From Escherichia coli (GTDB lineage: Bacteria; Pseudomonadota; Gammaproteobacteria; Enterobacterales; Enterobacteriaceae): a DNA stretch of 64,000 bases. The stretch is taken from NCBI RefSeq assembly GCF_044324785.1, contig NZ_CP172127.1; one strand, written 5' to 3'. Of the stretch, positions 23,605 through 63,759 are shown in pieces. The notes beneath the pieces are model-generated. The model did no database searches, was not told the origin of the DNA, and was given only the letters and a program-made list of their open reading frames with translations. Within the stretch, counting starts at the first letter, position 1, and each line of letters opens with the position of its first letter. Made by a program: the position numbers and the translations under genes.

Positions 23605-23652
23605 CCGCGCAAGGGACCCATTACGTAATTTGCTAAATATGCGCTGAATGCG

Positions 23653-25017: not shown

Positions 25018-25018
25018 T

Positions 25019-25351: not shown

Positions 25352-25367
25352 CCCCCCTCCCTGGCAG

Positions 25368-25402: not shown

Positions 25403-25442
25403 TTTTGAATTAGTAATCCCACTCAACATCTTATAAAGATGA

Positions 25443-26675: not shown

Positions 26676-26695
26676 ATCTCCCTCCGTATCTCTCA

Positions 26696-28078: not shown

Positions 28079-28126
28079 GGTGTACCTCGTTAATGCTGTG
28101 CCGCCCGCAGGATGACGGGCGAGCAA

Positions 28127-29095: not shown

Positions 29096-29200
29096 TAAAG
29101 CTCCTGTAAAATCGTTCGAAGCAGGGAAAATAACGCATGAGGCTACCTTGTATCCATTGCTTCTGGCAACATTAAGTCTCAAATTTTCAAAGGGTGGAAG

Positions 29201-29845: not shown

Positions 29846-29872
29846 CCCATTACTACAAGAAAGGAAATCGTT

Positions 29873-30889
29873 ATGTCCACATTACGCCTGCTCATCTCTG
29901 ACTCTTACGACCCATGGTTTAACCTGGCGGTGGAGGAGTGTATTTTTCGCCAGATGCCCGCCACGCAGCGCGTTCTGTTTCTCTGGCGCAATGCCGACAC
30001 GGTAGTGATTGGTCGCGCGCAGAACCCGTGGAAAGAGTGTAATACCCGGCGGATGGAAGAAGATAACGTCCGCCTGGCGCGGCGCAGTAGCGGCGGTGGC
30101 GCGGTGTTCCACGATCTCGGTAATACCTGCTTTACCTTTATGGCTGGCAAGCCGGAGTACGATAAAACCATCTCCACGTCGATTGTACTCAATGCTCTGA
30201 ACGCGCTCGGCGTCAGCGCCGAAGCGTCCGGACGTAACGATCTGGTGGTGAAAACCGCCGAAGGCGACCGCAAAGTCTCAGGCTCAGCCTATCGCGAAAC
30301 CAAAGATCGCGGCTTCCATCACGGCACCTTGCTACTCAATGCTGACCTTAGCCGTCTGGCAAACTATCTCAACCCGGATAAAAAGAAACTGGCGGCGAAA
30401 GGCATTACGTCGGTACGTTCCCGCGTGACCAACCTCACCGAGCTGCTGCCGGGGATCACCCATGAGCAGGTTTGCGAGGCGATTCGAGAGGCCTTTTTCG
30501 CCCATTATGGCGAGCGCGTGGAAGCGGAAATCATCTCCCCGGACAAAACGCCAGACTTGCCGAACTTCGCCGAAACCTTTGCCCGTCAGAGTAGCTGGGA
30601 GTGGAACTTCGGTCAGGCTCCGGCGTTCTCACATCTGCTGGATGAACGCTTCACCTGGGGCGGCGTAGAACTGCATTTCGACGTTGAAAAAGGCCATATC
30701 ACCCGCGCCCAGGTGTTTACCGACAGCCTCAACCCCGCGCCGCTGGAAGCCCTCGCCGGGCGACTGCAAGGCTGCCTGTACCGCGCGGATATGCTGCAAC
30801 AGGAGTGCGAAGCGCTGTTGGTTGACTTCCCGGAACAGGAAAAAGAGCTACGGGAGTTGTCTGCGTGGATAGCGGGGGCGGTGCGGTAG
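29873..30889 (+). CDS. lplA: Lipoate-protein ligase A
   Basis: ORF track 338 aa, [57 protein letters not shown]... Confidence 0.97.
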
Positions 30890-39312: not shown

Positions 39313-39432
39313 TGCCGGATGCGGCCTACAGTTCGGCACAGACTTGTAGGCATGATAAGACGCGTCAAGCGTCGCATCAGGCATTGTGCGCCAACTGCCG
39401 GATGCGGCGTGAACGCCTTATCCGGCCTACGG
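39313..39432. repeat. BIME / REP cluster between yjjW and yjjV
   Basis: Three REP-like palindromes (gccggatgcggcctaca..., tgtaggcatgataagacgcg...gcatcaggcat, tgccggatgcggcgtgaacgccttatccggcctacgg); the last overlaps the yjjV stop. Confidence 0.75.
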
Positions 39433-42683: not shown

Positions 42684-44273
42684 TTAATGCTCGCGGGTCT
42701 GGTGGAACTGAACGTCCGGATAACGTTCCTGCGCCAGGCGCAGATTGACCATGCTGGTAGCGATGTAAGCGAGGTTATCGCCGCCATCAAGCGCCAGTTG
42801 GCTTTCGTTCTTACGCTTGAACTCTTCGAATTTCTTCGCGTCCGCACATTCTACCCAGCGTGCAGTGGCAACGTTGACTGACTCATACACTGCTTCAACG
42901 TTGTATTCGCTCTTCAGGCGCGCTACCACCACATCAAACTGCAGCACACCAACCGCACCAACGATCAGGTCGTTGTTGGAGATCGGACGGAACACCTGCA
43001 CTGCGCCCTCTTCGGAAAGCTGTACCAGCCCTTTGAGCAGCTGTTTTTGCTTCAGTGGATCTTTCAGGCGGATACGACGGAACAGTTCTGGCGCGAAGTT
43101 CGGAATACCGGTGAACTTCATCATCTCACCCTGGGTAAAGGTGTCGCCGATCTGAATGGTGCCGTGGTTGTGCAGACCAAGGATATCGCCAGGATATGCT
43201 TCTTCAACGTGCGAACGGTCACCCGCCATAAAGGTCAGCGCGTCGGAGATCACCACATCTTTCGCAGTACGCACCTGGCGCAGCTTCATGCCTTTTTCAT
43301 ATTTACCGGACACCACACGCATAAACGCCACGCGGTCGCGGTGTTTCGGGTCCATGTTGGCCTGAATTTTAAATACGAAGCCGGTAAATTTGTCTTCGCT
43401 CGCTTCTACGGTACGGGTATCAGTCTGACGCGGCATCGGCGCAGGTGCCCACTCCACCAGGCCATCCAGCATATGATCGACACCGAAGTTACCCAGCGCA
43501 GTACCGAAGAATACCGGAGTGATTTCGCCCGCAAGGAACAATTCTTTGTCGAACTCGTTAGACGCGCCTTTCACCAGTTCCAGTTCATCACGCAGCTGCT
43601 GTGCCAGATCTTCACCAACCGCAGCATCGAGATCCGGGTTATTCAGCCCTTTAACAATGCGGACTTCCTGAATGGTGTGGCCTTTACCGCTCTGATAGAG
43701 ATAGGTTTCGTCTTTATAAAGGTGGTAAACGCCTTTAAACAGCTTGCCGCAGCCAATCGGCCAGGTGATCGGCGCACAGCCGATTTTCAGCTCGTTCTCA
43801 ACTTCATCGAGCAGCTCCATCGGGTCGCGGATATCACGGTCAAGTTTGTTCATAAAGGTGAGGATCGGCGTGTCGCGCAGACGGGTAACTTCCATCAGCT
43901 TACGGGTACGATCTTCAACACCTTTTGCAGCGTCGATAACCATCAGGCAGCAGTCCACCGCCGTCAGAGTACGATAGGTATCTTCCGAGAAGTCTTCGTG
44001 CCCCGGGGTGTCGAGCAGGTTAACCAGGCAGTCGTGATACGGAAACTGCATCACAGACGTGGTAATGGAGATCCCACGCTGCTTTTCCATCTCCATCCAG
44101 TCCGACTTAGCGTGCTGGTTAGAGCCACGGCCTTTTACTGTACCGGCGGTCTGAATGGCCTGTCCGAACAGCAGCACCTTCTCGGTGATGGTTGTTTTAC
44201 CGGCGTCCGGGTGAGAAATAATGGCAAAAGTGCGGCGCTTCGCCACCTCTTGCAAATAAGGAGACAACGTCAT
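42684..44273 (-). CDS. prfC: Peptide chain release factor 3
   Basis: ORF track 42684..44300; start set at [28 protein letters not shown] (529 aa). Confidence 0.96.
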
Positions 44274-45986: not shown

Positions 45987-47018
45987 ATGTCTGCATTTAC
46001 CCCGGCAAGTGAAGTCTTGCTGCGTCACAGTGATGATTTCGAACAAAGCCGTATTCTGTTTGCCGGAGACTTACAGGATGACCTGCCCGCGCGTTTAGAT
46101 ACCGCGGCCAGCCGTGCTCATACCCAGCAATTCCACCACTGGCAGGTGTTAAGCCGCCAGATGGGGGATAACGCCCGTTTTAGTCTGGTCGCCACGGCGA
46201 ATGATGTCGCAGATTGCAATACGCTGATTTACTACTGGCCGAAGAACAAACCGGAAGCCCAGTTCCAGTTGACGAATTTACTTTCTCTACTGCCGGTGGG
46301 CACGGATATTTTTGTCGTTGGCGAGAACCGCAGCGGCGTGCGCAGCGCCGAACAGATGCTGGCAGATTATGCGCCGTTGAATAAAGTCGACAGCGCCCGT
46401 CGCTGTGGCCTCTATTTTGGTCGTCTGGAAAAACAGCCGGTATTTGATGCCGATAAATTCTGGGGCGAATACAGCGTCGATGGCCTGACGGTCAAAACGC
46501 TGCCGGGCGTGTTTAGCCGCGACGGTCTGGATGTCGGTAGCCAGTTACTGCTCTCGACGTTAACTCCGCACACGAAAGGTAAAGTGCTGGATGTCGGCTG
46601 TGGCGCGGGCGTGCTTTCTGTTGCCTTTGCGCGCCATTCACCGAAAATTCGTCTCACTCTGTGCGATGTCTCTGCGCCAGCGGTAGAAGCCAGCCGCGCA
46701 ACACTTGCCGCCAACGGCGTTGAAGGTGAAGTCTTTGCCAGTAACGTCTTTTCCGAGGTGAAAGGTCGTTTTGATATGATCATCTCCAACCCGCCGTTCC
46801 ACGATGGGATGCAAACCAGCCTCGATGCGGCGCAAACGCTGATTCGCGGCGCGGTGCGTCATCTTAATAGCGGCGGCGAGCTGCGAATTGTAGCGAACGC
46901 CTTCCTGCCTTATCCGGACGTGCTGGATGAGACATTTGGCTTCCATGAAGTTATCGCGCAAACCGGGCGCTTCAAGGTGTATCGCGCCATTATGACCCGC
47001 CAGGCGAAGAAAGGTTAA
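45987..47018 (+). CDS. rsmC: 16S rRNA m2G1207 methyltransferase RsmC
   Basis: ORF track 343 aa; SAM-binding motif [12 protein letters not shown]. Confidence 0.95.
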
Positions 47019-47033
47019 GTATCTGGCACCTGT

Positions 47034-47077
47034 CGCCGCATACCGTGTCGGATGCGGCGTACACGCCTTATCTGACC
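47034..47077. repeat. REP-like palindromic element downstream of rsmC
   Basis: gccgcataccgtgtcggatgcggcgtacacgccttatctgacc read directly. Confidence 0.55.
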
Positions 47078-47148
47078 GACAAACGAATTATCCACAATTC
47101 GCTGATGGCCATTTTTCCAGCAATTACACCTCTGTCGATAATTAACTA

Positions 47149-47176
47149 TTGACGAAAAGCTGAAAACCACTAGAAT
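47149..47176 (+). promoter_or_regulatory. tRNA-Leu promoter (-35 TTGACG, 16-bp spacer, -10 TAGAAT, GC-rich discriminator)
   Basis: Hexamers read directly; AT-rich upstream stretch; 41 nt between the -10 and the mature tRNA 5' end. Confidence 0.75.
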
Positions 47177-47217
47177 GCGCCTCCGTGGTAGCAATTCTTT
47201 TTAAGAATTGATGGTAT

Positions 47218-47304
47218 GCGAAGGTGGCGGAATTGGTAGACGCGCTAGCTTCAGGTGTTAGTGTCCTTACGGACGTGGGGGTTCAAGTCCCCCCCCTCGC
47301 ACCA
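47218..47304 (+). tRNA. leuQ: tRNA-Leu (anticodon CAG), 87 nt with encoded CCA
   Basis: GCGAAGGTGGCGGAATTGGTAGACGCGCTAGCTTCAGGTGTTAGTGTCCTTACGGACGTGGGGGTTCAAGTCCCCCCCCTCGCACCA; class II tRNA with long variable arm. Confidence 0.95.
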
Positions 47305-47342
47305 ATTATCTTTACTTCCTTTCTTGTTGCTTCCCTGTTTTA

Positions 47343-47579
47343 TCATCCCTGCTTCAAATTCATTATCATCAGCATGATGCCAGCAATAAGCGCCAGGCAC
47401 GATGGCAGCAAAACGTAATGCCGCAACTGTTTGTGATACAGCATCACCGGCGTCAATACTAATCCCATCAGAATGATAATCCGCCATTGATCCGGCGATA
47501 AATCCGCATACATCAGCCCTGCAATCAGCAATCCCGGCAGCAACACTCCCCAGCCACTGCCCAGCGTACGTTGCAACAT
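47343..47579 (-). CDS. yjjZ: Small membrane protein YjjZ (78 aa)
   Basis: Internal start MLQRTLGSGWGVLLPGLLIAGLMYADLSPDQWRIIILMGL... within ORF track 47343..47690. Confidence 0.75.
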   Translation of the reverse strand: MLQRTLGSGWGVLLPGLLIAGLMYADLSPDQWRIIILMGLVLTPVMLYHKQLRHYVLLPSCLALIAGIMLMIMNLKQG

Positions 47580-47719
47580 GGTTTCATCTCTTTCATTGAT
47601 AATGATAACCAATATCATATGATAATTTTTATCATTTGCAAGCCAGAGAAATCCCTTGCTATCGGGTAAACCTATCGCTAGGATTAGCAATCATTATCAT
47701 TTAGATTACTATCACGATT

Positions 47720-48508
47720 ATGGCCTATCGTTCCGCACCGCTCTATGAAGATGTTATCTGGCGAACGCATCTCCAGCCGCAGGATGCTGGGCTTGCACAA
47801 GCCGTACGGGCGACGATCGCCGAACATCGTGAACATTTGCTGGAGTTTATCCGTCTGGATGAACCCGCACCGCTCCGTGCCATGACGCTGGCGCAATGGT
47901 CATCACCGAATACGCTAAGTTCTCTACTGGCGGTCTATTCCGATCATATCTACCGCAACCAACCCTTGATGATCCGCGAGAACAAACCGCTGATCTCACT
48001 ATGGGCACAATGGTATATCGGCCTGATGGTGCCACCATTAATGCTGGCGCTACTGACGCAGGAAAAAGCATTAGATGTGTCGCCGGAACATTTCCATGCT
48101 GAGTTTCACGAAACCGGACGCGCCGCCTGTTTCTGGGTCGATGTGTGTGAAGATAAAAACGCAACACCACATTCGCCGCAGCAGCGAATGGAAACGTTAA
48201 TCAGCCAGGCGCTGGTTCCGGTTGTGCAGGCACTAGAAGCGACCGGAGAGATCAACGGCAAACTTATCTGGAGTAATACCGGTTATTTGATCAACTGGTA
48301 TCTCACTGAGATGAAGCAACTGCTCGGCGAGGCGACGGTTGAATCGCTGCGCCATGCCCTATTTTTTGAGAAAACGCTCACGACCGGTGAAGATAATCCA
48401 CTCTGGCGTACCGTGGTGCTGCGCGACGGCCTACTGGTGCGCCGCACTTGCTGCCAGCGTTATCGCTTACCGGATGTGCAGCAATGTGGCGATTGTACGC
48501 TGAAATGA
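47720..48508 (+). CDS. fhuF: Ferric-siderophore reductase FhuF (2Fe-2S)
   Basis: ORF track 262 aa; C-terminal C-C-x10-C-x2-C motif (CCQRYRLPDVQQCGDC). Confidence 0.93.
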   Translation: MAYRSAPLYEDVIWRTHLQPQDAGLAQAVRATIAEHREHLLEFIRLDEPAPLRAMTLAQWSSPNTLSSLLAVYSDHIYRNQPLMIRENKPLISLWAQWYIGLMVPPLMLALLTQEKALDVSPEHFHAEFHETGRAACFWVDVCEDKNATPHSPQQRMETLISQALVPVVQALEATGEINGKLIWSNTGYLINWYLTEMKQLLGEATVESLRHALFFEKTLTTGEDNPLWRTVVLRDGLLVRRTCCQRYRLPDVQQCGDCTLK

Positions 48509-48544
48509 AGCACTGCCGGGGAAGTAAACCCGGCATCATGTGGA

Positions 48545-49222
48545 TTAATAGGGATGCAACACATTACTTGCTTCGCAATGCCGCATACATAACAGAATAT
48601 CTGCGGCCTCCAACAACCCTGCATCAGAACTGACGCCCAGTTTCGACATCACATTAAATTTATGTGCACGGATCGTTTTGATATTGCGTTTAAGCTGCTC
48701 GGCAATTTGTGTCATTGAGTAGCCACGCGACATAAAGCGCAATATTTCTCTCTCCGTCGGGCTTAGCGTTCGGCTTTGATTAATGTACCACTGATTGTTC
48801 AGTCGGTCGGTCGCCTGACGTACACCATTTAATGACAAAAAGAGTTCCTGATGAAAAATCTCCAGCGTTGACGCTTTACTTAATACACCGTCCAGCGGTG
48901 ATGGCGACAATGAACCGATCAGCCGAGCTTCAATATCATCATCCGCAATAACTAAACGTCGGGTACGCGGAAACTTAATCGCCAGTTCAGTCAGGCAAGA
49001 TAATCCCTCTCTGCGTTCACTTCTCATGGCAGAAAAAGAAAAAATGACCGCCGCAAACGAGATCCGCGACATGGCATCCTGAAATGACTCCTGACTGGTA
49101 TAGGTATGGAGCTTATAAGGGTTACCTGCAAACTTTCTGAATAAACTCTCAATACCGATACTGCTCATGACGCATTTTTCTATGAGTGCGACATTTCTCT
49201 TCTTAATTCGGCTGTGTTCCAT
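48545..49222 (-). CDS. bglJ: LuxR-family transcriptional activator BglJ
   Basis: ORF track 225 aa; C-terminal LuxR HTH ([25 protein letters not shown]). Confidence 0.9.
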
Positions 49223-49905
49223 TCTGCGGCATCTCCATAAACAGAAGGCAAGTTAAGTTCTCTTGCACCCTGCGCGCTATTTATCCATGCATACATTTCA
49301 GCGTTGCTGTGAATTGCCAGTCGACGCATCGCACTGTTTTTTTGGGCGCTGATAGTTTTATTACTTTTCTTAAGCAATGAAGCTATCTGGTTGATGCCCC
49401 ATCCTTTACCTAATAGCCGCAGTACCTTGCGCTCTGAAAGAGTGAGAATGACGGAGCGATAGCTAAAATCATGAGTTTCAGTCATTGCCGGAGAGGTCAG
49501 CATGGCGCTGATACGCTCTGCGTGCGTATTGCCGGAACGTACGGTCTTGACCAGATTCTCAATAGGTTCAACATCAGACAATAACGTCGCCGTAGGGCAC
49601 ATGAGCAATTCTACTGCCTGGGAATACCAGGAGCGTGACACCATGAAAACCCAGTGAATTTCCCGATATTGTGAGATTAAAGAATAATAATGTTCACAAA
49701 CAGAACGTGGATCTTCACTTTCACCGGCTAAATCAGCAATAACTAATCCGGAACGACGTAATTGTAATAAGGTAAGGTCCTCCGCAGAGGCGCTGGATAT
49801 TATTTCATATTCAGGGAAGTGAGTCCTCATGACCTCTTTTAACCCTGCTTGCATAACAGGTATTTTACTGATAACAATTCCATTTTTGCAGCATCCTGGC
49901 AACAT
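49180..49905 (-). CDS. yjjQ: LuxR-family transcriptional regulator YjjQ
   Basis: ORF track 241 aa; C-terminal LuxR HTH ([23 protein letters not shown]); overlaps bglJ by 43 nt. Confidence 0.9.
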
Positions 49906-50523
49906 ATTTCCTCCACATCCACTGTCTAAAAATCATGATGGTTTATTCAGGATATTCATTCCTTAAATGTTTCCAGCAAATTAATAGATTAAGCGAATAA
50001 ATTATCCTTAGCATTCACTTTCATATCAGCATACTCCTGCTGCACAACAACTCCACTGCATGTGTCAGAAGGTTAGCATCAAATGATAACCTGGTGAAAT
50101 AGCCTGGAGACATTTAAAATATCTACATTAAGTTGTTAGAAATACTTAATGAAAAACAGAATTCTCATTCATTTAATTTATAATTAACTGATATCCCTTC
50201 CCGCAGAATGCAAAATCACACAATCAATATTTATTCAATAAAATCTGATAGTTTTAACTTGTAAAAATTAAAAAACGCGCCCAGTTATCTTTTATCCTGA
50301 TTCGTAAAGGCTAAACAATAAATTCATTATAGTGATAATATTCATGCGATAATTTGTTTGCGGCGAGAGATAATTCGCTTTTTAACACCGAGCTTCTCCC
50401 GATAACCAGGATTAATCAGCGCAATTTTGATCTTAACCTACCGCAAAACAACCGTGCTTCATGATACAAATGGATTCTCATTATCTGAACAATACGCAGC
50501 ACGTCTATGACAAAGGGCGAGTT

Positions 50524-51294
50524 ATGCAAACTGAGCAACAGCGAGCCGTAACACGGCTTTGTATCCAGTGTGGATTATTTCTTTTGCAACATGGTGCGGA
50601 AAGCGCGTTGGTTGATGAGCTTTCCTCACGACTGGGTCGGGCGTTGGGAATGGACAGCGTCGAAAGTTCTATCTCTTCGAACGCCATAGTGCTGACAACC
50701 ATCAAAGATGGACAATGCCTGACATCGACACGTAAAAATCACGATCGCGGCATTAATATGCATGTGGTGACTGAAGTCCAGCACATTGTGATTCTGGCGG
50801 AGCATCATCTGCTGGATTACAAAGGTGTAGAGAAACGATTTAGCCAAATTCAGCCATTACGTTACCCGAGATGGCTGGTAGCCTTAATGGTCGGCCTTTC
50901 TTGCGCCTGTTTCTGTAAACTCAATAAAGGTGGCTGGGATGGTGCCGTCATCACCTTCTTTGCCAGTACGGTCGCGATGTATATCCGCCAGCTGCTGGCA
51001 CAACGTCATCTTCATCCACAGATCAACTTTTGCCTCACCGCTTTCGCCGCCACCACCATTTCCGGTTTGCTTTTGCAACTTCCCACTTTCAGCAATACAC
51101 CCACTATCGCGATGGCCGCCAGCGTTCTGCTGCTGGTGCCGGGTTTTCCGTTGATTAATGCCGTCGCCGATATGTTTAAAGGCCACATCAATACCGGACT
51201 GGCACGCTGGGCGATCGCCAGTCTGCTGACACTGGCTACCTGCGTCGGCGTGGTGATGGCACTGACGATTTGGGGGCTACGCGGATGGGTGTGA
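50524..51294 (+). CDS. yjjP: Inner membrane protein YjjP (ThrE-family-like)
   Basis: ORF track 50461..51294; start set at [27 protein letters not shown] (256 aa). Confidence 0.88.
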
Positions 51295-51758
51295 TCGAAT
51301 TTCTGTTCGCGTTGGCGCAGGATATGATCCTCGCCGCCATTCCAGCGGTCGGCTTTGCGATGGTGTTCAACGTTCCCGTTCGGGCGTTACGCTGGTGTGC
51401 GCTGCTTGGCGCGATTGGTCATGGTTCACGAATGATCTTAATGACCAGCGGGCTGAATATTGAGTGGTCAACCTTTATGGCCTCCATGCTGGTCGGCACC
51501 ATTGGTATTCAATGGTCGCGCTGGTATCTTGCGCATCCGAAAGTGTTTACCGTGGCGGCTGTTATCCCCATGTTCCCTGGCATATCGGCTTATACCGCAA
51601 TGATTTCGGCGGTAAAAATCAGCCAGTTAGGTTACAGCGAGTCATTGATGATTACCCTATTAACCAACTTTCTTACAGCTTCATCGATTGTTGGTGCATT
51701 ATCCATCGGTCTTTCCATTCCTGGATTATGGTTGTACCGCAAGCGCCCTCGCGTATAA
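51285..51758 (+). CDS. yjjB: Inner membrane protein YjjB
   Basis: ORF track 51270..51758; start set at [26 protein letters not shown] (157 aa); overlaps the yjjP end. Confidence 0.88.
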
Positions 51759-51865
51759 AATTGCCTCGCTTAAAGCACACGGATGAGAGACAGCCTCCTC
51801 TCCTCCGTGTGTTACTATAAAAGTTATCTCCCTTCTCGTTCATCGTTCCATATTTGAGAAACAGT

Positions 51866-52405
51866 ATGTCTTCCAGAGTTTTGACCCCGGACGTCGTTGG
51901 TATTGACGCCCTGGTACACGATCACCAAACCGTTCTGGCAAAAGCTGAAGGCGGTGTGGTTGCCGTATTTGCTAACAATGCCCCGGCGTTTTATGCCGTC
52001 ACGCCTGCACGCCTGGCTGAACTGCTGGCGCTGGAAGAAAAGCTGGCGCGTCCGGGAAGCGATGTCGCTCTGGACGATCAACTCTATCAGGAACCGCAAG
52101 CCGCTCCCGTTGCTGTACCCATGGGGAAATTCGCCATGTATCCGGACTGGCAACCCGATGCCGACTTTATCCGCCTGGCGGCGCTATGGGGCGTGGCGCT
52201 AAGAGAGCCGGTGACCACCGAAGAACTGGCCTCATTCATTGCCTACTGGCAGGCGGAAGGTAAAGTCTTTCACCATGTGCAGTGGCAACAAAAACTGGCG
52301 CGCAGCCTGCAAATCGGCCGTGCCAGCAACGGCGGACTGCCGAAACGAGATGTGAATACGGTCAGCGAACCTGACAGCCAAATTCCACCAGGATTCAGAG
52401 GGTAA
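51866..52405 (+). CDS. dnaT: Primosomal protein DnaT
   Basis: ORF track 51854..52405; start set at [29 protein letters not shown] (179 aa). Confidence 0.93.
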
Positions 52406-52407
52406 CG

Positions 52408-53145
52408 ATGAAAAACGTTGGCGACCTGATGCAACGCCTGCAAAAAATGATGCCTGCCCATATCAAACCTGCGTTCAAAACGGGTGAAGAACTACTGGCC
52501 TGGCAGAAAGAACAAGGGGCGATCCGCTCCGCCGCTCTCGAACGTGAAAATCGGGCGATGAAAATGCAGCGCACCTTTAACCGCTCCGGTATTCGTCCAC
52601 TGCATCAGAACTGCTCCTTTGAGAACTATCGCGTTGAGTGTGAAGGGCAAATGAATGCGTTAAGCAAAGCGCGCCAGTATGTCGAAGAGTTTGACGGCAA
52701 CATCGCCAGCTTCATCTTTTCTGGTAAGCCAGGAACCGGCAAAAACCATCTGGCGGCAGCAATCTGCAACGAGCTGCTGCTACGCGGTAAATCCGTATTG
52801 ATCATCACCGTGGCCGATATTATGTCGGCGATGAAAGATACCTTCAGGAATAGCGGTACCAGCGAAGAACAACTGCTTAACGATCTGAGCAACGTTGATC
52901 TGCTGGTGATCGATGAGATCGGCGTGCAGACCGAATCGAAATACGAAAAAGTGATCATCAACCAGATCGTCGATCGCCGCTCTTCTTCCAAACGCCCAAC
53001 CGGGATGCTGACCAACAGTAATATGGAAGAGATGACCAAGTTGCTGGGCGAACGCGTGATGGACCGTATGCGCCTGGGTAACAGTTTGTGGGTGATCTTC
53101 AACTGGGATAGCTACCGTAGCCGGGTAACGGGTAAAGAGTATTAA
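52408..53145 (+). CDS. dnaC: Helicase loader DnaC
   Basis: ORF track 245 aa; Walker A GKPGTGKNHLAAAI. Confidence 0.96.
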   Translation: MKNVGDLMQRLQKMMPAHIKPAFKTGEELLAWQKEQGAIRSAALERENRAMKMQRTFNRSGIRPLHQNCSFENYRVECEGQMNALSKARQYVEEFDGNIASFIFSGKPGTGKNHLAAAICNELLLRGKSVLIITVADIMSAMKDTFRNSGTSEEQLLNDLSNVDLLVIDEIGVQTESKYEKVIINQIVDRRSSSKRPTGMLTNSNMEEMTKLLGERVMDRMRLGNSLWVIFNWDSYRSRVTGKEY

Positions 53146-53193
53146 TCCCCGTTTCTGGCGGTATACTGCGACACAATTCCACCTTGAGTAATG

Positions 53194-53688
53194 ATGATGA
53201 AAACTGTTAAACATCTTCTGTGCTGTGCCATTGCCGCCAGCGCATTAATTTCCACCGGGGCACATGCTGCGTCATGGAAAGATGCGCTCTCCAGCGCCGC
53301 CAGCGAACTTGGCAACCAAAACAACACGACACAGGAAGGCGGTTGGTCGCTCGCGTCATTAACTAACTTGCTTAGCAGCGGGAACCAGGCCTTAAGCGCA
53401 GATAACATGAACAATGCCGCAGGCATTCTGCAATACTGCGCGAAGCAAAAGCTGGCTTCGGTAACCGATGCCGAAAACATCAAGAATCAGGTACTGGAAA
53501 AACTGGGCCTGAACAGTGAAGAGCAAAAAGAAGACACCAACTACCTAGATGGCATTCAGGGTTTGCTGAAAACCAAAGATGGTCAGCAACTCAATCTGGA
53601 TAACATCGGAACGACTCCGCTGGCAGAAAAGGTGAAAACCAAAGCCTGCGATCTGGTGTTAAAGCAGGGGCTGAACTTCATTTCCTGA
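53194..53688 (+). CDS. yjjA: DUF2501 secreted protein YjjA
   Basis: ORF track 53191..53688; signal peptide MMKTVKHLLCCAIAASALISTGAHA; start codon choice among three tandem Met is uncertain. Confidence 0.85.
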   Translation: MMKTVKHLLCCAIAASALISTGAHAASWKDALSSAASELGNQNNTTQEGGWSLASLTNLLSSGNQALSADNMNNAAGILQYCAKQKLASVTDAENIKNQVLEKLGLNSEEQKEDTNYLDGIQGLLKTKDGQQLNLDNIGTTPLAEKVKTKACDLVLKQGLNFIS

Positions 53689-53941
53689 ACCGCGAAACGC
53701 CGCGTTTTAGCTGTTACCCGGCTGACGCGGCTCTCTCCTGCCCTTTTCCCTGCCCCTGGACGGTTTTCCCCCTGTTACACGGGAAGCGACCGTAATCAAA
53801 AAAGTCTGTTTATAAACTAATTCCTAACAACATCGCATTTTTTTGACACTAGAATTGCAGCAATATGGCGACGCCATTACATTGTGCTTCTCAAAAAGCT
53901 TAAACGTTGGCTAAACGGCCCGGTTTAGTGAGGATCGCCCG

Positions 53942-56233
53942 TTGTCAGAACTACTCTCTTTCGCCCTTTTTCTCGCCTCTGTGCTGATTTACGCATGGAA
54001 AGCGGGACGTAACACCTGGTGGTTTGCAGCCACGTTAACGGTGCTGGGGCTATTTGTCGTTTTAAATATCACCCTGTTTGCCAGCGACTATTTTACTGGT
54101 GATGGTATTAACGACGCGGTTCTCTATACCTTAACCAACAGCCTGACCGGTGCTGGCGTCAGCAAATACATTCTTCCGGGTATCGGCATTGTGCTGGGGC
54201 TGACGGCGGTGTTCGGTGCGCTGGGCTGGATCCTGCGCCGTCGTCGTCATCATCCGCACCATTTTGGTTACAGCCTGCTGGCACTCTTACTGGCGTTGGG
54301 TTCAGTGGATGCCAGCCCGGCATTTCGTCAGATAACGGAACTGGTGAAATCCCAGTCACGCGATGGCGACCCGGACTTTGCGGCTTATTATAAAGAGCCG
54401 TCGAAAACTATCCCTGACCCGAAACTCAACCTGGTTTATATCTACGGCGAAAGTCTCGAGCGGACCTATTTTGATAACGAAGCTTTCCCGGATCTCACGC
54501 CTGAACTGGGCGCGTTGAAAAATGAAGGCCTGGATTTCAGCCACACGCAGCAGCTGCCAGGAACGGATTACACGATTGCGGGCATGGTGGCTTCTCAGTG
54601 CGGCATACCGCTGTTTGCCCCCTTTGAAGGCAACGCCTCCGCCTCTGTCTCCAGCTTCTTCCCGCAGAACATCTGTCTGGGCGATATCCTGAAAAACTCG
54701 GGTTATCAGAACTATTTCGTGCAGGGCGCGAATCTGCGTTTTGCCGGTAAAGATGTGTTCCTGAAGTCGCACGGCTTCGACCACTTATACGGCTCAGAAG
54801 AGCTGAAAAGCGTGGTGGCCGACCCGCACTATCGCAACGACTGGGGATTCTACGACGATACCGTTCTCGATGAAGCGTGGAAAAAGTTTGAAGAGCTTTC
54901 CCGCTCAGGTCAGCGATTCTCACTGTTTACCCTGACAGTCGATACCCATCACCCGGATGGTTTTATCTCGCGTACCTGTAACCGCAAAAAATATGATTTT
55001 GACGGTAAGCCGAATCAGTCATTCAGCGCGGTAAGTTGCAGCCAGGAGAATATCGCGACGTTTATCAACAAAATCAAAGCGTCACCGTGGTTTAAAGATA
55101 CCGTCATCGTCGTCTCTTCTGACCATTTAGCGATGAACAACACGGCGTGGAAATACCTCAATAAACAGGATCGCAATAACCTGTTTTTTGTCATCCGTGG
55201 CGACAAGCCGCAGCAAGAGACGCTGGCGGTGAAGCGTAACACGATGGATAACGGCGCGACGGTGCTGGACATTCTCGGTGGCGATAACTATCTCGGACTT
55301 GGTCGTAGCAGTTTATCCGGGCAGTCGATGTCGGAAATCTTCCTCAATATCAAAGAGAAAACATTGGCGTGGAAGCCGGATATCATCCGCCTGTGGAAAT
55401 TCCCTAAAGAGATGAAAGAGTTCACCATCGACCAGCAGAAAAACACGATTGCCTTCTCGGGTAGCCATTTCCGTTTGCCGCTGCTGTTGCGGGTTTCAGA
55501 CAAGCGCGTAGAACCGCTGCCGGAAAGTGAATACTCAGCACCGCTGCGTTTCCAGCTGGCCGATTTCGCTCCACGCGACAATTTCGTCTGGGTTGACCGT
55601 TGCTACAAGATGGCACAACTCTGGGCTCCGGAACTGGCACTCTCCACCGACTGGTGTGTCTCGCAGGGGCAGCTTGGCGGTCAGCAAATTGTTCAGCATG
55701 TTGACAAAACAACATGGAAGGGCAAAACGGCATTTAAAGATTCGGTCATCGACATGGCGCGTTACAAAGGCAATGTCGATACGCTGAAGATTGTTGATAA
55801 CGATATCCGCTACAAAGCCGACAGTTTCATCTTTAACGTCGCCGGTGCGCCGGAAGAGGTGAAACAGTTTAGCGGGATTTCTCGTCCGGAGTCGTGGGGC
55901 CGCTGGTCCAACGCACAGCTGGGCGACGAAGTAAAAATCGAGTACAAGCATCCGCTGCCGAAGAAATTTGACCTGGTGATTACCGCCAAAGCATACGGCA
56001 ATAACGCCAGCCGTCCTATTCCGGTACGCGTAGGCAATGAAGAACAAACTCTTGTGCTGGGCAATGAAGTGACCACCACCACGCTGCATTTCGATAACCC
56101 AACCGATGCCGACACGCTGGTAATTGTGCCGCCGGAACCTGTCTCAACCAACGAAGGGAATATCCTCGGACACTCGCCGCGTAAGCTCGGGATCGGCATG
56201 GTGGAAATTAAAGTGGTAGAACGTGAAGGGTAA
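53942..56233 (+). CDS. opgB: Phosphoglycerol transferase I (osmoregulated periplasmic glucan biosynthesis)
   Basis: ORF track 763 aa, (M)[31 protein letters not shown]...; TTG start as read. Confidence 0.95.
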
Positions 56234-56245
56234 TTCCTGACTGAT

Positions 56246-56290
56246 GTGTAGGTCGCATAAGGTGCGACCTACACGCCTTCTCCGGCTTAC
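56246..56290. repeat. REP-like hairpin between convergent opgB and lgoD
   Basis: gtaggtcgca-N5-tgcgacctac stem followed by acgccttctccggcttac. Confidence 0.6.
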
Positions 56291-56370
56291 AACACACTAT
56301 TAAGAAACAAAAAAAACAGCGCCCAACACTTCCCCGGACGCTGCATGGCAACTTTAATAATCTCGCCTTA

Positions 56371-57393
56371 TCAGAAAGTAATTACACCCTTAATCAACTC
56401 ACGATTGTTAATCACATCGCGCTCGTAGGTTTCTGCCAGCGTGGCGAACGGATAGCGATGGGTTAACATCATGTCAGCAGTGATTTTTCCTTCCGCCATC
56501 AGTCGACCGACTTTAGCAAAATCTTCCGGCGTGGCGTTGCGGCTGCCCATCATCGTCGTTTCTTTTTTATGGAATTCCGGATCGGAGAACTGCAACTCAC
56601 CTTTAAACAGGCCGACAAATACCACCGTGCCGCCGTGACGAATCAGATTCACGGTGTTATTCATCGCATGTTGATTACCTGTCGCGTCGATCACTTTCTG
56701 CGCCAGCGAACCACCAAACTGCGCCCGCAGCTGCGCGTCAAAATCTTCGGCTGACGGGTCCAGCACGGGCAACTCCAGACGCGTTGCCACATGTTCACGG
56801 CGCGCCGGACTGGTATCCGCCACCACTACCTGTGCGCCATCGGCTTTAGCGATTGCCGCCGCGCCCAGACCGATTGGCCCCGCCCCGACCACCAGCACCT
56901 GCTCGCCGGGAGCAATGGCTGCGCGACGCACCGCATGAGCGCTAATCGCGAAAGGTTCAATCAATGCTGCCGCCTGCGGGTCAATACCGTCTGCGGGCAA
57001 AATGTTCGCCACCGGCACGCTCAAATACTCACTAAAACCGCCATCCTGATGCACGCCAATGACTGAAATTTTTTCACAGCAATTGGTACGCCCGCTTTTA
57101 CACGCCGGGCATTGCTGACAAGAAATATACGGAATTACCGCAACTTGCTGTCCGATATTAAAATTGTGAATGTTTTTTCCTGATTCAATAATCTCCCCAC
57201 ATATTTCATGGCCTAAAACGCGTGGATAACTAAAAAATGGTTGATTGCCCGCCCAGGCATGAATATCTGTACCGCAAATCCCGACGGTTTTAATTTTAAT
57301 TAATGCTTCGTTATCGCCTGGCACCGGTCTTTCCCGGACTGTCCATACTAAATTCTTTATTTCCTGACAAATTAATACTTTCATTGTGGACAT
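56371..57393 (-). CDS. lgoD: L-galactonate 5-dehydrogenase (Zn-dependent MDR family)
   Basis: ORF track 340 aa; Zn-ADH motifs (GHEICGEI, CxxCxxC, GAGPIGLGAAA). Confidence 0.92.
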   Translation of the reverse strand: MSTMKVLICQEIKNLVWTVRERPVPGDNEALIKIKTVGICGTDIHAWAGNQPFFSYPRVLGHEICGEIIESGKNIHNFNIGQQVAVIPYISCQQCPACKSGRTNCCEKISVIGVHQDGGFSEYLSVPVANILPADGIDPQAAALIEPFAISAHAVRRAAIAPGEQVLVVGAGPIGLGAAAIAKADGAQVVVADTSPARREHVATRLELPVLDPSAEDFDAQLRAQFGGSLAQKVIDATGNQHAMNNTVNLIRHGGTVVFVGLFKGELQFSDPEFHKKETTMMGSRNATPEDFAKVGRLMAEGKITADMMLTHRYPFATLAETYERDVINNRELIKGVITF

Positions 57394-57531
57394 GATTCAC
57401 CGCTCCTTTTATTTTATGACTTTCAGATATCGTCGAATTTATAAGAGCGCCTGAATTTACCCATAAAATATGCGGATGATCACGCATAAAAATGTTTTAA
57501 ATCGGTTTTTAATGCCGGACTGGAGGGAAGA

Positions 57532-58437
57532 ATGAGTCGTTCGCAGAATTTACGTCATAACGTCATAAATCAGGTGATTGAAGATATGGCGAGGGGCAAT
57601 ATTCCTTCTCCGCTGCCTTCACAAAGTGGGCTGGCAGAAATGTATAACATCAGTCGCACTACGGTACGCCACATACTCCAGCATTTAAGCGCATGTGGCG
57701 TGCTCACCCTGGTGGGGAAAAATTATGTTATCGCCCGCAAACCCGAACAGAACGATGGATTTGATTGCATCACGGCCTCGCTGAAAGAGCAAAACCGTCT
57801 TTTCGAGCAGGCATTTTTCACCATGATTAACCTGCGCCAGTTACGCGCGGGAGAAAGCTTTTCCGAACTTCAGCTGGCGCGAGCGGCAGGCGTCAGTCCG
57901 GTAGTAGTACGAGAATATCTTTTGAAATTCGGTCGTTATAATCTTATTCAAAGCGAAAAGCGCGGCCAGTGGAGCATGAAGCAGTTCGATCAATCCTACG
58001 CCGAGCAACTGTTTGAGCTACGCGAAATGCTCGAAACACATTCCCTGCAACACTTTCTCAACCTTCCCGATGACGATCCCCGCTGGTTGCAGGCGAAAAC
58101 CATGCTCGAACGTCACAGGACATTGCGCGACAGCATTGGCAGCAACTTTCGGATGTTTTCTCAATTAGACCGTGATTTTCATGCCATGCTGTTATCCGCT
58201 GCTGACAACATCTTTTTTAATCAATCACTTGAAATTATCTCGGTGATCTTTCATTTTCACTATCAATGGGATGAAAGCGATCTCAAGCAGCGCAATATCA
58301 TTGCTGTTGATGAGCATATGACCATTCTCAGCGCCCTGATTTGCCGTAGCGATTTAGATGCAATAACGGCATTGCGAAACCATCTGGATACCGCCAAACA
58401 ATCAATGATTCGTTCCATCAGGCAACATCACCGATAA
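57532..58437 (+). CDS. lgoR: GntR-family regulator of L-galactonate catabolism
   Basis: ORF track 301 aa; N-terminal wHTH and C-terminal FCD-like domain; divergent from lgoD. Confidence 0.88.
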   Translation: MSRSQNLRHNVINQVIEDMARGNIPSPLPSQSGLAEMYNISRTTVRHILQHLSACGVLTLVGKNYVIARKPEQNDGFDCITASLKEQNRLFEQAFFTMINLRQLRAGESFSELQLARAAGVSPVVVREYLLKFGRYNLIQSEKRGQWSMKQFDQSYAEQLFELREMLETHSLQHFLNLPDDDPRWLQAKTMLERHRTLRDSIGSNFRMFSQLDRDFHAMLLSAADNIFFNQSLEIISVIFHFHYQWDESDLKQRNIIAVDEHMTILSALICRSDLDAITALRNHLDTAKQSMIRSIRQHHR

Positions 58438-58607
58438 ATTAAGTACAGATTAAAAACATTGATTCTTGGTTTATATCACTATGTTGTATTAATGCAGTAT
58501 TAATCCAGGCGATTGTTCTGCCTATAAGGAAATACATAGGGAATAAACGATGCTGGAAGTATTACTCTCAGCCATCATTTAACTCCCTATTACTGGTAGC
58601 GATAAAA

Positions 58608-60260
58608 TTATCGGCTATCCATGATTAACGTTTCCAGCACATCTAATTCACTGACTATTTTTGCCAGTGTTTCATCACTGACTTCTTGCCGTGCACGCAT
58701 CTGGTAAATAGCCGCACGCCTGGCATTTAACGCTGCCAGATTAAATGTTCTTTCCAGCTTCGCGCGCTGCATATGTAAAGAATTATCATTTTCCGACATA
58801 TCATCTTCGCTACGCCGCATATAACCGATAACTCTGGCCCCTGTTTCCATAATCAACTCGTTGTCGAGGTTTTCTGTACTGGTGCGTAGCAAACGTTGCT
58901 CAGTCTTTTGCACACTGAGTATGGCCATTTTGGCCATAAACAGATCGGCAGCTTCCTCTTCTTTTTGCCGGTTATCGCTGAAAATGCCCACATTTTTCCC
59001 CAGTAGTAACGGCAGAATAATAATGCCGCAAACCAGCGAAAAGAGGATCACACCTGTGGCGAGAAATACCAGTAAGTAACGCCCGGGAAAAGATGTGCCA
59101 TCCGGCAGCAATAACGGGATAGAAAGCACCCCCGCAAGCGTGATGGCTCCGCGCACCCCCGCAAAGGTCGCCAGCAGCATATGACGCGTTTTATATCCAG
59201 CAAACAGCATCGGATGTTTGCCGGGTCGTTTACGGCTATACAGACGCATCAGCCAAAGCCAGCCCAAGCGCACAACCATTAACGCCAGGTAGATCCAAAT
59301 GACATCAAGGAGCAGCGATCCGGTGTCTACCAGTGGATCGTTTTCTGCACGGATCAGTGATTCCGTAATAATGCCCGGCAGTTGTAAGCCTAAAATCAGA
59401 AACACCATGCCGTTAAAGACATATTCAAGCATCGACCAGCTACTTTTAGCTTTAATTCTCAGGCGAATAGGCGCGTGGTGGACTACGCCAATGCGACTGG
59501 TTGTTAACCCCGCGGCGACAGCGGCAAGAATGCCAGATAAGCCAAAATGTTCCGCAACCAGATAAACAATAAACGGCAACAGAAGCATCAATACAATCTG
59601 AATGGAAGGTTCATCGTGAGCATATCGACTGATCAACAGCAGCCCTTTGCCATATAACCAGGTAACAGCGATCCCCACGGCAATACCGCCCAACGCAACG
59701 ACAAAAAACGCAATGGTTGCGCCATGAACGCTGAATTCCATCGTTCCCATCGTCACTGCAACAGCAAATTTCAACGCCACCAAGCCGGAAGCATCATTCA
59801 TCAACGCTTCGCCTTCGAGCACTTCCTGGATGTTTTTGCTGATACGCCCTTTCCCGACAATCCCCAGCAACGCCACGGCATCGGTAGGCGACAACACGGC
59901 GGCTAATGCGAAAGCAGCGATGAGCGGCACATTCGGTAAGAGTAAATGAATCACATAGCCGACACCAAAAATAGTGATTAGCACCAACACAAGCGCCAGG
60001 CTGACAATTTCCCGACTGTGCTTGATCAATTCTTTAGGTTGTATTTTTGAGCTTTCAGCAAACAACAAGGGGGGTATAAACAATAAGAGAAAAAGTTCAG
60101 GATTGAATTCCACATGCAGACCAAATATGGGCTGGGCCAGTATAGCGCCAGCGGCAATCTGGATTAAAGGAAGTGGTATCTGAACAGGAGACAGACGCGT
60201 AAGCACGCTGGTTAATGATACTACCAACGTAAGAATTAAAATTGTTAAAAGTATTTCCAT
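58608..60260 (-). CDS. CPA1-family Na+(K+)/H+ antiporter (NhaP-type) with C-terminal cytoplasmic domain
   Basis: ORF track 58608..60281; multi-TM; CPA1 signatures AVLSPTDAVALLGIV and EGEALMNDASGLVALKF; start may be 60281 or 60260. Confidence 0.85.
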   Translation of the reverse strand: MEILLTILILTLVVSLTSVLTRLSPVQIPLPLIQIAAGAILAQPIFGLHVEFNPELFLLLFIPPLLFAESSKIQPKELIKHSREIVSLALVLVLITIFGVGYVIHLLLPNVPLIAAFALAAVLSPTDAVALLGIVGKGRISKNIQEVLEGEALMNDASGLVALKFAVAVTMGTMEFSVHGATIAFFVVALGGIAVGIAVTWLYGKGLLLISRYAHDEPSIQIVLMLLLPFIVYLVAEHFGLSGILAAVAAGLTTSRIGVVHHAPIRLRIKAKSSWSMLEYVFNGMVFLILGLQLPGIITESLIRAENDPLVDTGSLLLDVIWIYLALMVVRLGWLWLMRLYSRKRPGKHPMLFAGYKTRHMLLATFAGVRGAITLAGVLSIPLLLPDGTSFPGRYLLVFLATGVILFSLVCGIIILPLLLGKNVGIFSDNRQKEEEAADLFMAKMAILSVQKTEQRLLRTSTENLDNELIMETGARVIGYMRRSEDDMSENDNSLHMQRAKLERTFNLAALNARRAAIYQMRARQEVSDETLAKIVSELDVLETLIMDSR

Positions 60261-60940
60261 ATAATAAACAGGCTTCCTCATTCATAAATAATGGATATTA
60301 TTAATTTAACTTCATAAAAAGCGCCCTGGTTAGCACTTAACGTTAATCATTAATCACAGCGTTCACTCACATGCTCAGGAGGAAACCAGTGAGATGAGTT
60401 TTCCCGTTGATAACAAATTCACCATGTGAATATTTACTACCTTTAACCGTTGTAACGAATCATCCGTTACTCTTTGATCTCCTTGCCGAACAAGTTGTTT
60501 AGTGAATGATGGCTTTCTTTTAACGTCAGCATGAATTATACGTTCAGCAAATGTATTAAATCAGCACTAAATAAATTTAATGGATACCACCATTCTGCGT
60601 CAACACTTAGTTTTTATCTGTAAAAATAGCCGCAGCCAAATTAATGCTTTTATTTTTAATAAATCATCAACCGAATAAGAGATCTTATCAGCGGTAACTA
60701 AACTCATCAGTGGGTGTTCCTTGTAACGTCATACATTACATAACTTTAAGATATACAATCAAAAAATGCATTAAAAACCGATTAAAAGCAGCAAAGTATT
60801 ACCCGGTGCACGAATTTATGACACATTTGCAGCCATTCCGCTATTCACTGACTACTTTTCAGTAATGACTGCTTTTTCATAAGGTTTCACTCCCGACAAC
60901 AATGTTGGAGTTTTATTTCCTTAGCATGGAGTAAGTAAAG

Positions 60941-61912
60941 ATGAGCAAAATAATAGCGATGCTAATTACTGTCAGTACCCTTTTTTTACCGTCAATAATC
61001 CAGGCAAAACCTATTTCGATAAAAGTTGCCTATGAAAATAACCCTGGAGAACCCCTGGATGTGGTCATGCGTTACTGGGCAGACCTATTAAATAAAAAAA
61101 GTAATGGCGAAATAACACTTGCGCTCTATCCAAGTTCCCAATTGGGCTCAAAACAGGATGTCACCGAGCAAGCCATGATGGGCATGAATGTCATAACCTT
61201 GAGTGATGTGGCCTTTCTTGCCGATTATGAACCCGATTTGGGTATTTTGTTTGGACCGTATCTGACTGACGATCCGCAAAAACTGTTCAAAATATATGAA
61301 AGCGACTGGTTTAAACAAAAAAATGAAAGTCTGAAGAAAAAGGGAATTCATGTGGTAATGAATAATTATCTCTATGGCACTCGACAGATTATTTCGAAAA
61401 AACCCATTCGCACTGTTGACGATCTCGCAGGCTTAAAAATTCGTGTTCCTAATAACGTCATGCAAATAAAAGCCATTCAGGCGATGGGGGCAACACCAAC
61501 TCCCATGCCATTAGGCGAAGTTTATCCCGCATTAACCCAGGGCGTTATTGACGGCGTAGAAAACCCAATTTCAGTGCTGCAAGGGCAAAAACTGTATGAG
61601 CAGGCAAGATATCTGACAATGGTTAACTACCTGACAAATACCTCAGTATGGATAGGTGGTGAAGCCTTCTTTAGCACCCTTTCACCAGAACAACTGGAGA
61701 TGATCCACCAGACCGGCTATGAAGCGGGTGTCTATAGCCAGAAACTCACTCTTGAACGTGATGCCGAAATGTTGAAAACCATGCAGGCAGCGGGCGTCGA
61801 AGTGATCTATCCCGATACTGGACCATTCCAGAAGAAAGCACGCGAAGTTTACTCTCAATTCCCGGAATGGACACCAGGTCTGTACGAAACCATTCAACAG
61901 CAACTGCAATAA
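60941..61912 (+). CDS. TRAP transporter substrate-binding protein (DctP family)
   Basis: ORF track 323 aa with signal peptide; GGAG RBS upstream; first of three co-oriented genes with the DctP/DctQ/DctM size pattern. Confidence 0.8.
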   Translation: MSKIIAMLITVSTLFLPSIIQAKPISIKVAYENNPGEPLDVVMRYWADLLNKKSNGEITLALYPSSQLGSKQDVTEQAMMGMNVITLSDVAFLADYEPDLGILFGPYLTDDPQKLFKIYESDWFKQKNESLKKKGIHVVMNNYLYGTRQIISKKPIRTVDDLAGLKIRVPNNVMQIKAIQAMGATPTPMPLGEVYPALTQGVIDGVENPISVLQGQKLYEQARYLTMVNYLTNTSVWIGGEAFFSTLSPEQLEMIHQTGYEAGVYSQKLTLERDAEMLKTMQAAGVEVIYPDTGPFQKKAREVYSQFPEWTPGLYETIQQQLQ

Positions 61913-61975
61913 GCATTAATGCTCAGCGTCCTGCCTCATCTCTCTTAGGCAGGACACGCACTAACAGGAGGTTTC

Positions 61976-62449
61976 ATGCGTCTTTTTGGCAAAGTGGCAG
62001 AATTTAGTGCTGCCTTTGCGCTATTCGTTCTGGTTGTGATGACAATTGGAGCGGTATTTATGCGTTATTTCATCGGCCAACCGCTTCAATGGACAGAAGA
62101 AATGTCGGGAATGCTGATGATTTGGGTGGTGATGTTAGGTGGAGTAGTGGCGGAACGTGACAGGGCGCACCTGACCATTCCCTTCCTGATGGAGATGCTT
62201 CCAGGCAAGCTCAGGCGTGTTATTGCAGTACTGGTCGCCGTTCTCTCCATCGCACTGCTGCTGTATATGGCCTGGCTGGGCTACCGACTAGCCGAAATGG
62301 CGCAGTTTAAAGTGACACAAATTCTGAAGGTTTCCTGGTTCTGGATCGATCTGGCGGTCCCTGTCGGTGCACTGGCAACGGCTATTTATACCCTCTACTG
62401 GTTAATACACGATATAAAACAATCCGATAGCGGAGACAAAATGCAATGA
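61976..62449 (+). CDS. TRAP transporter small permease (DctQ family)
   Basis: ORF track 157 aa, four predicted TM helices; overlaps the next gene by 4 nt. Confidence 0.8.
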   Translation: MRLFGKVAEFSAAFALFVLVVMTIGAVFMRYFIGQPLQWTEEMSGMLMIWVVMLGGVVAERDRAHLTIPFLMEMLPGKLRRVIAVLVAVLSIALLLYMAWLGYRLAEMAQFKVTQILKVSWFWIDLAVPVGALATAIYTLYWLIHDIKQSDSGDKMQ

Positions 62450-63717: not shown

Positions 63718-63759
63718 TAATAAAAACGCCGGATGAAATACTCATCCGGCGTCATTGCG

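Follow-up and report, generated by a model that had tools for sequence, protein, structure and literature searches.

A single tRNA-Leu(CAG) gene preceded by its own promoter lies between rsmC and yjjZ in the window, that is, the whole 64-kb stretch of Escherichia coli DNA analyzed here. The 87-nt gene, its neighbors and its promoter had been described in the original prediction from the letters of the sequence, and this description is borne out by ARAGORN, Rfam, the open reading frames and a promoter scan. According to ARAGORN, tRNA-Leu(cag) at 47218–47304 on the + strand is the sole tRNA in the window, and the Rfam tRNA model RF00005 matches positions 47218–47301 with 48.5 bits. The minimum-free-energy fold of the tRNA alone contains no cloverleaf (z = –1.4), which is normal for tRNAs, and the ARAGORN and Rfam assignments, together with 100% identity to leuQ, are preferred. 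The features of the locus, in window coordinates, are listed below.

45987–47018, + strand: rsmC, 16S rRNA m2G1207 methyltransferase (343-aa ORF; K-12, Sakai and other genomes have rsmC annotated at the homologous place)
47030–47078, no strand assigned: REP-like palindromic element in the spacer between rsmC and the tRNA gene, with the core GCCGCATACCGTGTCGGATGCGGC at 47035–47058 (from the alignment of the window with K-12)
47149–47184, + strand: promoter of the tRNA operon, sigma-70 type, near-consensus (–35 box TTGACG at 47149–47154, 16-nt spacer, –10 box TAGAAT at 47171–47176)
47218–47304, + strand: tRNA-Leu(CAG), 87 nt, with C at position 48 (ARAGORN; Rfam RF00005; 87 of 87 positions identical to both leuQ and leuV)
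47305–47342, + strand: leuV-type 3′ trailer (ATTATCTTTACTTCC...), from the 55/60 match to the downstream flank of K-12 leuV
47343–47579, – strand: yjjZ, DUF1435 protein, convergent with the tRNA gene and conserved as its downstream neighbor in E. coli (78-codon frame inside the ORF 47343–47690)
47720–48508, + strand: fhuF, ferric-siderophore reductase, a marker of the downstream flank (262-aa ORF, annotated as fhuF in all compared genomes)

The site TTGACG–16 nt–TAGAAT (47149–47176) has the best score in the promoter scan, 10 out of 12, and a G+C-rich discriminator, GCGCCTCC at 47177–47184, directly follows the –10 box. The arrangement characteristic of the operon, TTGAC(G)–16/17 nt–TAGAAT followed by GCGC and a tRNA start 26–56 nt downstream, is thereby present, and the conserved pattern of the –35 box, the –10 box, GCGC and the tRNA start has one match in the window, with zero expected by chance. 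From the discriminator, we infer that the tRNA operon may be under stringent or growth-rate control. The palindromic element at 47030–47078 is a putative REP, so called here because of its palindrome.

No intrinsic terminator is seen after the tRNA gene, as the + strand has no terminator-like site in the region 46900–47750. This agrees with the published end of the K-12 leuQPV transcript, where an unstructured Rho-dependent terminator follows leuV, the trailer being CCAAUUAUC, and the transcript is processed by RNase P (Mohanty and Kushner, 2007; PMC2190699). The stop codon of yjjZ lies 38 nt from the tRNA gene, the same as in K-12; yjjZ is annotated with a length of 237 nt in K-12, Sakai, WB61 and other genomes, at an equal distance from the last tRNA gene. 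Further downstream, the yjjZ–fhuF spacer (47596–47641) contains overlapping AT-rich palindromes (TTGATAATGATAACCAATATCATATGATAATTTTTATCATT) and promoter-like sites on both strands. In appearance these palindromes are similar to arrays of Fur boxes, which would fit the promoter of the iron-regulated fhuF.

Comparison With the K-12 leuQPV Operon

In K-12 MG1655 the same place is occupied by three genes, as had been stated in the original prediction and is confirmed by the annotation: leuQ, leuP and leuV, in the order of transcription, 87 nt each, separated by spacers of 28 nt (s1) and 34 nt (s2), and constituting the leuV operon (b4370–b4368). The tRNA gene of the window is identical to leuQ and leuV at all 87 positions, leuP differing by C48T. 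The 60 nt preceding it are identical to the leader of K-12 leuQ, promoter included (60/60), and the 60 nt following it match the leuV trailer at 55 positions. Hence, the gene is joined on one side to what precedes the first gene of the K-12 array and on the other side to what follows the last one.

The difference between the two loci is exactly 236 bp, or two repeat units, comprising one leuQ/leuV-equivalent sequence, s1, leuP and s2. In place of the three tandem copies of the leuQPV operon the window contains one, s1 and s2 are gone, and no remnant of either spacer is found anywhere in the window with up to three mismatches allowed. Neither a direct repeat nor a scar is found at the tRNA site. 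The junction falls inside the identical 87-bp repeat, the outer flanks are intact, and an integer number of units is missing. Based on this anatomy, the locus is best described as the leuQPV operon in a contracted state: it retains rsmC upstream, yjjZ and fhuF downstream, the promoter and leader, the tRNA sequence and a leuV-type trailer lacking an intrinsic terminator, and has one gene where K-12 has three.

One more difference concerns the region between rsmC and the first tRNA gene, which in K-12 is approximately 68 nt longer than in the window, the extra segment holding a second REP-like palindrome. This difference is independent of the 236-bp loss. The spacer is 199 nt long in the window and 189, 266–267, 290, 300 or 308 nt in other strains; its length depends on whether REP-like palindromic units are present, and varies independently of the tRNA copy number.

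Copy Number in Complete E. coli Genomes

To place the window among other strains, we used 5,426 complete E. coli genomes. The canonical center of the three-copy array (tRNA–s1–tRNA–s2–tRNA) is present in 4,963 of them (91.5%), with the same s1 and s2. The single-copy junction, defined as 60 nt of the leader, the tRNA gene and 60 nt of the trailer (207 nt in total), is found at full length in 424 of 5,426 genomes (7.8%), in one place each. The remainder (5,425 – 4,963 – 424) leaves about 38 genomes with two-copy arrays, of which about 36 have been identified individually. Both possible types of two-copy array are found, one retaining s1 (TUM2820 and the O157:H7 strain TR01) and the other retaining s2 (FDAARGOS_1283); as megablast introduced gaps through unrelated spacers, only the top rows of the two-copy junction queries were used, and only as a source of such examples.

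In an evenly spaced sample of the 424 single-copy genomes, approximately 70% are of the O157:H7 type, and approximately 27% are unrelated strains isolated from chicken meat, cattle, baboon, wastewater and human urine. The finished reference genome of O157:H7 Sakai has a single gene, annotated as “leuQ” (ECs_R0127), at this locus, and so the single-copy state has been available in public reference genomes for years; it is already known and constitutes neither a new element nor a new mechanism. The departure from K-12 noted in the original prediction is real, but it is less unusual than was implied there, being both recurrent and observed in 7.8% of complete genomes.

Single-copy loci closely resembling that of the window are thus found in Sakai and approximately 300 other O157:H7 genomes. 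Sakai has rsmC, the promoter, one tRNA-Leu(CAG) gene and yjjZ in the same arrangement, with 98.6% identity to the window over the 207-nt junction. It differs in that it represents an independent event on another haplotype, with a 189-nt rsmC–tRNA spacer and O55:H7-like flanks, compared to 199 nt in the window.

Several records deviate from these patterns in minor ways. In O111:H8 and E. albertii three copies are present according to the annotation and ARAGORN, the middle one being a variant. In CRE10 (1654–1974 of the extracted segment), two of the three copies are annotated as 86 nt long, with the C8 run shortened to C7; this may be either a homopolymer sequencing error or a real indel at the leuP/Q/V/T hotspot. 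A 294-kb record of strain 1428_w1_hybrid (NZ_CP170379.1) carries a 100% identical tRNA-Leu(CAG) gene at 248292–248380, while only three are seen on the chromosome of this strain. In strain TUM2805, a 655-kb record (NZ_CP128951.1) carries the whole single-copy chromosomal junction at 549407–549613, and one of the 424 single-copy junctions was counted as plasmid-borne. Both records may be split or misassigned pieces of the chromosome rather than true plasmids.

Ancestral Copy Number in Enterobacterales

The array was surveyed in other species using a promoter-anchored pattern (the –35 box, the –10 box, GCGC and the tRNA start) which is conserved in, and retrieved from a genome collection, at least 120 species representatives of Enterobacterales, and copies were counted in 99 species loci with at least 420 nt of downstream sequence. 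Ninety-two of these 99 loci contain three tandem tRNA-Leu(CAG) genes behind the conserved promoter, among them E. albertii, Escherichia sp. MOD1-EC7003, Salmonella, Citrobacter, Klebsiella, Enterobacter, Pantoea and Erwinia. The spacers of three-copy arrays in the outgroups are similar, about 28 and 31–34 nt, and RsmC is encoded upstream of the array in most species loci with enough upstream sequence (tblastn). The remaining loci are as follows.

Two copies, 4 of 99 loci: Erwinia persicina, a Pluralibacter MAG, “Enterobacter” pulveris and Atlantibacter hermannii
One copy, 3 of 99 loci: E. whittamii, Enterobacter sichuanensis and Winslowiella iniecta

The E. whittamii representative is a draft assembly with approximately 8.8× coverage, according to the contig name. 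As 92 of 99 Enterobacterales loci hold three copies, the three-copy array is the deeply conserved ancestral state and the single copy a derived contraction.

Independent Contractions and Probable Inheritance of the Allele

The direction of the change can be observed directly in one pair of lineages. O157:H7 originates from the O55:H7 lineage. The O55:H7 strain CB9615 has three copies and the same 189-nt rsmC–tRNA spacer as Sakai, and so does O145:H28. The 1-kb flanks of the array in these two genomes, Sakai and CB9615, diverge by 0.0% on the upstream side and by 0.1% on the downstream side. As the flanks of the one-copy and the three-copy locus are nearly identical, sequence comparison places one loss of copies on the O157:H7 branch, and this pair is the only unambiguous case.

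Other single-copy strains have different closest relatives. In the flank trees, ST648 is closest to the three-copy O111:H8 and CRE10, while C311, also single-copy, is closest to the three-copy O104:H4 and CRE10. The rsmC–tRNA spacers of single-copy genomes fall into lengths of 189, 199, 266 or 300 nt. The nucleotide at position 48 also varies: the order along the array is C–T–C in K-12, O145:H28 and O104:H4, C–T–T in Nissle and C–C–C in O55:H7, and the lone copy has C48 in the window and T48 in EcPNK004. Gene conversion or exchange between the copies of an array would produce such patterns. Taken together, the flank neighbors, the spacer lengths, position 48 and the O157/O55 pair indicate several independent contractions in E. 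coli; flank-based assignment of origins can be blurred by homologous recombination between lineages.

The flanks of the window cluster with those of 22AR0750, WB61 and BCE049, all of which are single-copy and differ by 1.2–5%, and this cluster has a near-basal position among the E. coli sequences. WB61 is identical to the window over the 207-nt junction (100%). Since every one of the nearest flank haplotypes has a single copy, this strain probably received the allele by inheritance and did not form it anew. Hence, of the original statement that this strain had collapsed its array, the contraction holds, but it is probably not an event of the strain itself.

Alternative Explanations

Identical tandem repeats are a classic cause of assembly errors, and the single copy could be an artefact, with three real 87-bp repeats collapsed into one by the assembler; the single-copy E. 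whittamii outgroup, a draft of approximately 8.8×, could be such a case. For the window, this is very unlikely. A collapse would need to remove the unique 28- and 34-nt spacers as well, and no trace of them is left in the window; the locus lies inside a contiguous 64-kb stretch, with no contig break. Moreover, 424 genomes completed independently, the Sakai reference among them, have the same junction, and the closest flank haplotypes of the window in complete genomes are all single-copy. An even less probable explanation, to which we assign next to no weight, is that one copy is ancestral and K-12-like strains have amplified it to three. The position of the window flank group near the base of E. 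coli in the downstream-flank tree, as well as the single copy of E. whittamii, would fit such a scenario, but three copies, with spacers of similar length, are found in 92 of 99 Enterobacterales loci, s1 and s2 are the same in 91.5% of E. coli, and the comparison of O55:H7 (three copies) with O157:H7 (one copy) reveals a direct loss. The outgroup survey effectively refutes it.

A rather improbable, though less remote, explanation is that the single-copy allele was imported into this lineage by homologous recombination, that is, by allelic replacement from another single-copy E. coli. The region is mosaic, with identity to K-12 of approximately 97.9% to the left of the tRNA gene and 95.7% to the right; the trees of the upstream and downstream flanks differ in topology, and the best match among complete genomes over 24 kb around the locus is 97.9%. 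However, both flanks of the window group with 22AR0750, WB61 and BCE049, as predicted by vertical descent. Besides, an import concerns only the route of the allele, and a de novo contraction would still have been needed in some ancestor. We therefore retain contraction of the leuQPV array from three tandem genes to one, with which the locus is very probably to be identified.

A Model of Contraction

The K-12 array consists of three 87-bp repeats, identical or differing by 1 nt, which recur at 115 and 121 bp; repeats long enough to pair are likewise present in 92 of 99 outgroup loci. In E. coli, tandem repeats of this length are deleted either by RecA-dependent unequal sister exchange or by RecA-independent replication slippage. 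The simplest explanation of the contraction would be that identical 87-bp repeats recombined or that slippage occurred between them, and the collapse by recombination between identical repeats proposed in the original prediction fits the loss of two units, the three ancestral copies, the shared junction and the two-copy intermediates.

In the proposed scenario, the ancestor would have had the arrangement promoter–leuQ–28 nt–leuP–34 nt–leuV. Misaligned pairing of the identical 87-bp genes, via unequal RecA-mediated exchange between sister chromosomes or via replication slippage, would remove an integer number of units, 236 bp in total, either in one step between leuQ and leuV or in two single-unit steps. 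The product would be one intact gene that keeps the ancestral promoter and 5′ leader upstream and is followed directly by the ancestral leuV trailer. The allele is heritable, and contraction has occurred repeatedly in E. coli and other Enterobacterales. The integer loss, the hidden junction, the intact flanks, the presence of both intermediates and the exchange among copies together form a signature of misaligned pairing. The parental copies are identical, so the crossover point is hidden, and the RecA route and slippage, as well as one step and two, would leave the same sequence; both the pathway and the number of steps are thus part of the model, while the anatomy of the locus, the direction of the change and its repeated occurrence are shown by the sequences.

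Change of copy number by homologous recombination is a general phenomenon in tandem tRNA arrays, with identical units gained or lost in integer numbers and no scar left; glyVXY has been noted as such a tandem array, and close relatives differ by one or two copies (McDonald et al., 2015; PMC4539685). The duplications in Pseudomonas fluorescens (PMC7661048; PMC10954465), another example, are large-scale and laboratory-selected, whereas here we observe contraction of a deeply conserved three-gene array.

Duplication of leuT-proM in O157:H7

In the argX-hisR-leuT-proM operon of O157:H7 the leuT-proM unit is tandemly duplicated, so that the order of tRNAs identified by ARAGORN is Arg, His, Leu(CAG), Pro, Leu(CAG), Pro. 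The PGAP annotation leaves the first, 75-nt Pro copy of this duplication unannotated. The compared positions in the extracted segments are as follows.

O157:H7 Z1833: 6077–6739
O55:H7 CB9615: 43303–43739
K-12: 1376–1812

The duplication is found in 288 of 5,426 complete genomes, essentially in the O157:H7 lineage, and is absent from O55:H7 CB9615. The total number of tRNA-Leu(CAG) genes in O157:H7 is therefore 1 + 2 = 3, and not two. On the O157:H7 branch, two copies have been lost at leuQPV and one has been gained at leuT, so that the loss is partly offset by the duplication of leuT-proM. A phage-borne tRNA-Leu(CAG) had also been considered as the source of the extra O157:H7 copy, and was rejected, as only misfiled bacterial contigs matched.

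Gene Dosage and Possible Consequences

In the window, the promoter, leader, tRNA and trailer are all intact, and hence the remaining gene is presumably fully functional and only the dosage is altered. A search with the tRNA alone yielded 21,084 full-length copies across 5,425 genomes; the median genome has four, corresponding to leuQPV and leuT. The leuT gene lies outside the 64-kb window; if it is single in this strain, the genome-wide number of tRNA-Leu(CAG) genes would decrease from four (leuQPV and leuT) to two. In WB61 only two places are found with the junction query, and the total in this genome is probably two.

CUG is the most used codon of E. coli, and tRNA-Leu(CAG) is among the most abundant tRNAs; for this reason, halved dosage of the gene could affect the maximal growth rate. 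The leuVPQ deletion in K-12 is viable and costly when nutrients permit fast growth, while redundant tRNA genes are costly in poor media (Raval et al., 2023, eLife; PMC9981150). The natural allele and this MG1655 deletion are similar in that the tRNA-Leu(CAG) gene dosage is lowered at the same locus, in the deletion strain at a tolerated, nutrient-dependent cost, but the deletion removes all three genes, whereas the natural allele retains one with its native promoter. In mismatch-repair-deficient lines, the C8 run of leuP/Q/V/T is the top hotspot for indels in tRNA genes (PMC8510543), and an evolution experiment on range expansion linked inactivating indels in these genes to larger colonies (bioRxiv 10.1101/355404). 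Many tRNA genes vary by about one copy among E. coli strains (PMC4539685).

It might be that the repeated contraction of leuQPV is adaptive and not neutral, lower dosage being favored in slow-growth or nutrient-poor niches, with O157:H7 re-tuned by the coupled gain of leuT-proM. We consider this doubtful, the points in its favor (PMC9981150; bioRxiv 10.1101/355404) being only suggestive, and any effect of the contraction on fitness being presumed. If true, the locus would represent a natural, reversible dial for translational capacity.

For this window, the single copy is an ordinary strain-level difference from K-12. More generally, annotators and comparative pipelines should expect one, two or three copies at leuQPV. 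The copy number is a handy lineage marker, since the single copy is fixed in O157:H7 and absent in O55:H7, and natural copy-number variants allow near-isogenic comparisons of the costs and benefits that redundant tRNA genes entail.

Other Features of the Window and Neighboring Loci

Two further regions of the window are absent from K-12; the genes in both are ordinary accessory ones, and IS elements are lacking. One, of approximately 5.6 kb (19814–25442), lies between ettA and nadR and encodes a LysR-type regulator, an aldo-keto reductase, a short-chain dehydrogenase, an SRPBCC-like protein, a small secreted protein and a HigB/HigA-like pair. Within it, at 23917–24702, there is a degraded second copy of the 3′ part of ettA, 95.7% identical to K-12, and this copy suggests insertion of the region with a target duplication. 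The other region, approximately 5.3 kb long (58419–63751), is unlike K-12, where lgoT is found at this place. Based on ORF translations, it encodes a Na+/H+ exchanger-like membrane protein (58608–60281, – strand) and a three-gene TRAP-type transporter (60941–63717, + strand).

The segment 30000–54000 has no match above 97.9% among the 5,426 complete E. coli genomes, and belongs either to a poorly represented lineage or to a strongly mosaic region. The identity to K-12 changes from approximately 97.9% to the left of the tRNA gene to 95.7% to the right (47217–58418), and a recombination breakpoint may lie at the tRNA locus.

Other Rfam matches above the gathering thresholds are naRNA4, a REP-derived nucleoid-associated RNA, on the – strand (39349–39427) and the thr operon leader, also on the – strand (6831–6950). 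From the thr leader it is evident that the coordinate origin of K-12 lies within the window, which runs in the reverse orientation. In O55:H7 CB9615, a prophage is located between yjjG and prfC, approximately 3 kb from the tRNA array; it is present neither in the window nor in K-12. This prophage, covered by two extracted segments (15969–32001 and 1–18744), encodes an integrase and, adjacent to it, the Dsr1 anti-phage sirtuin.
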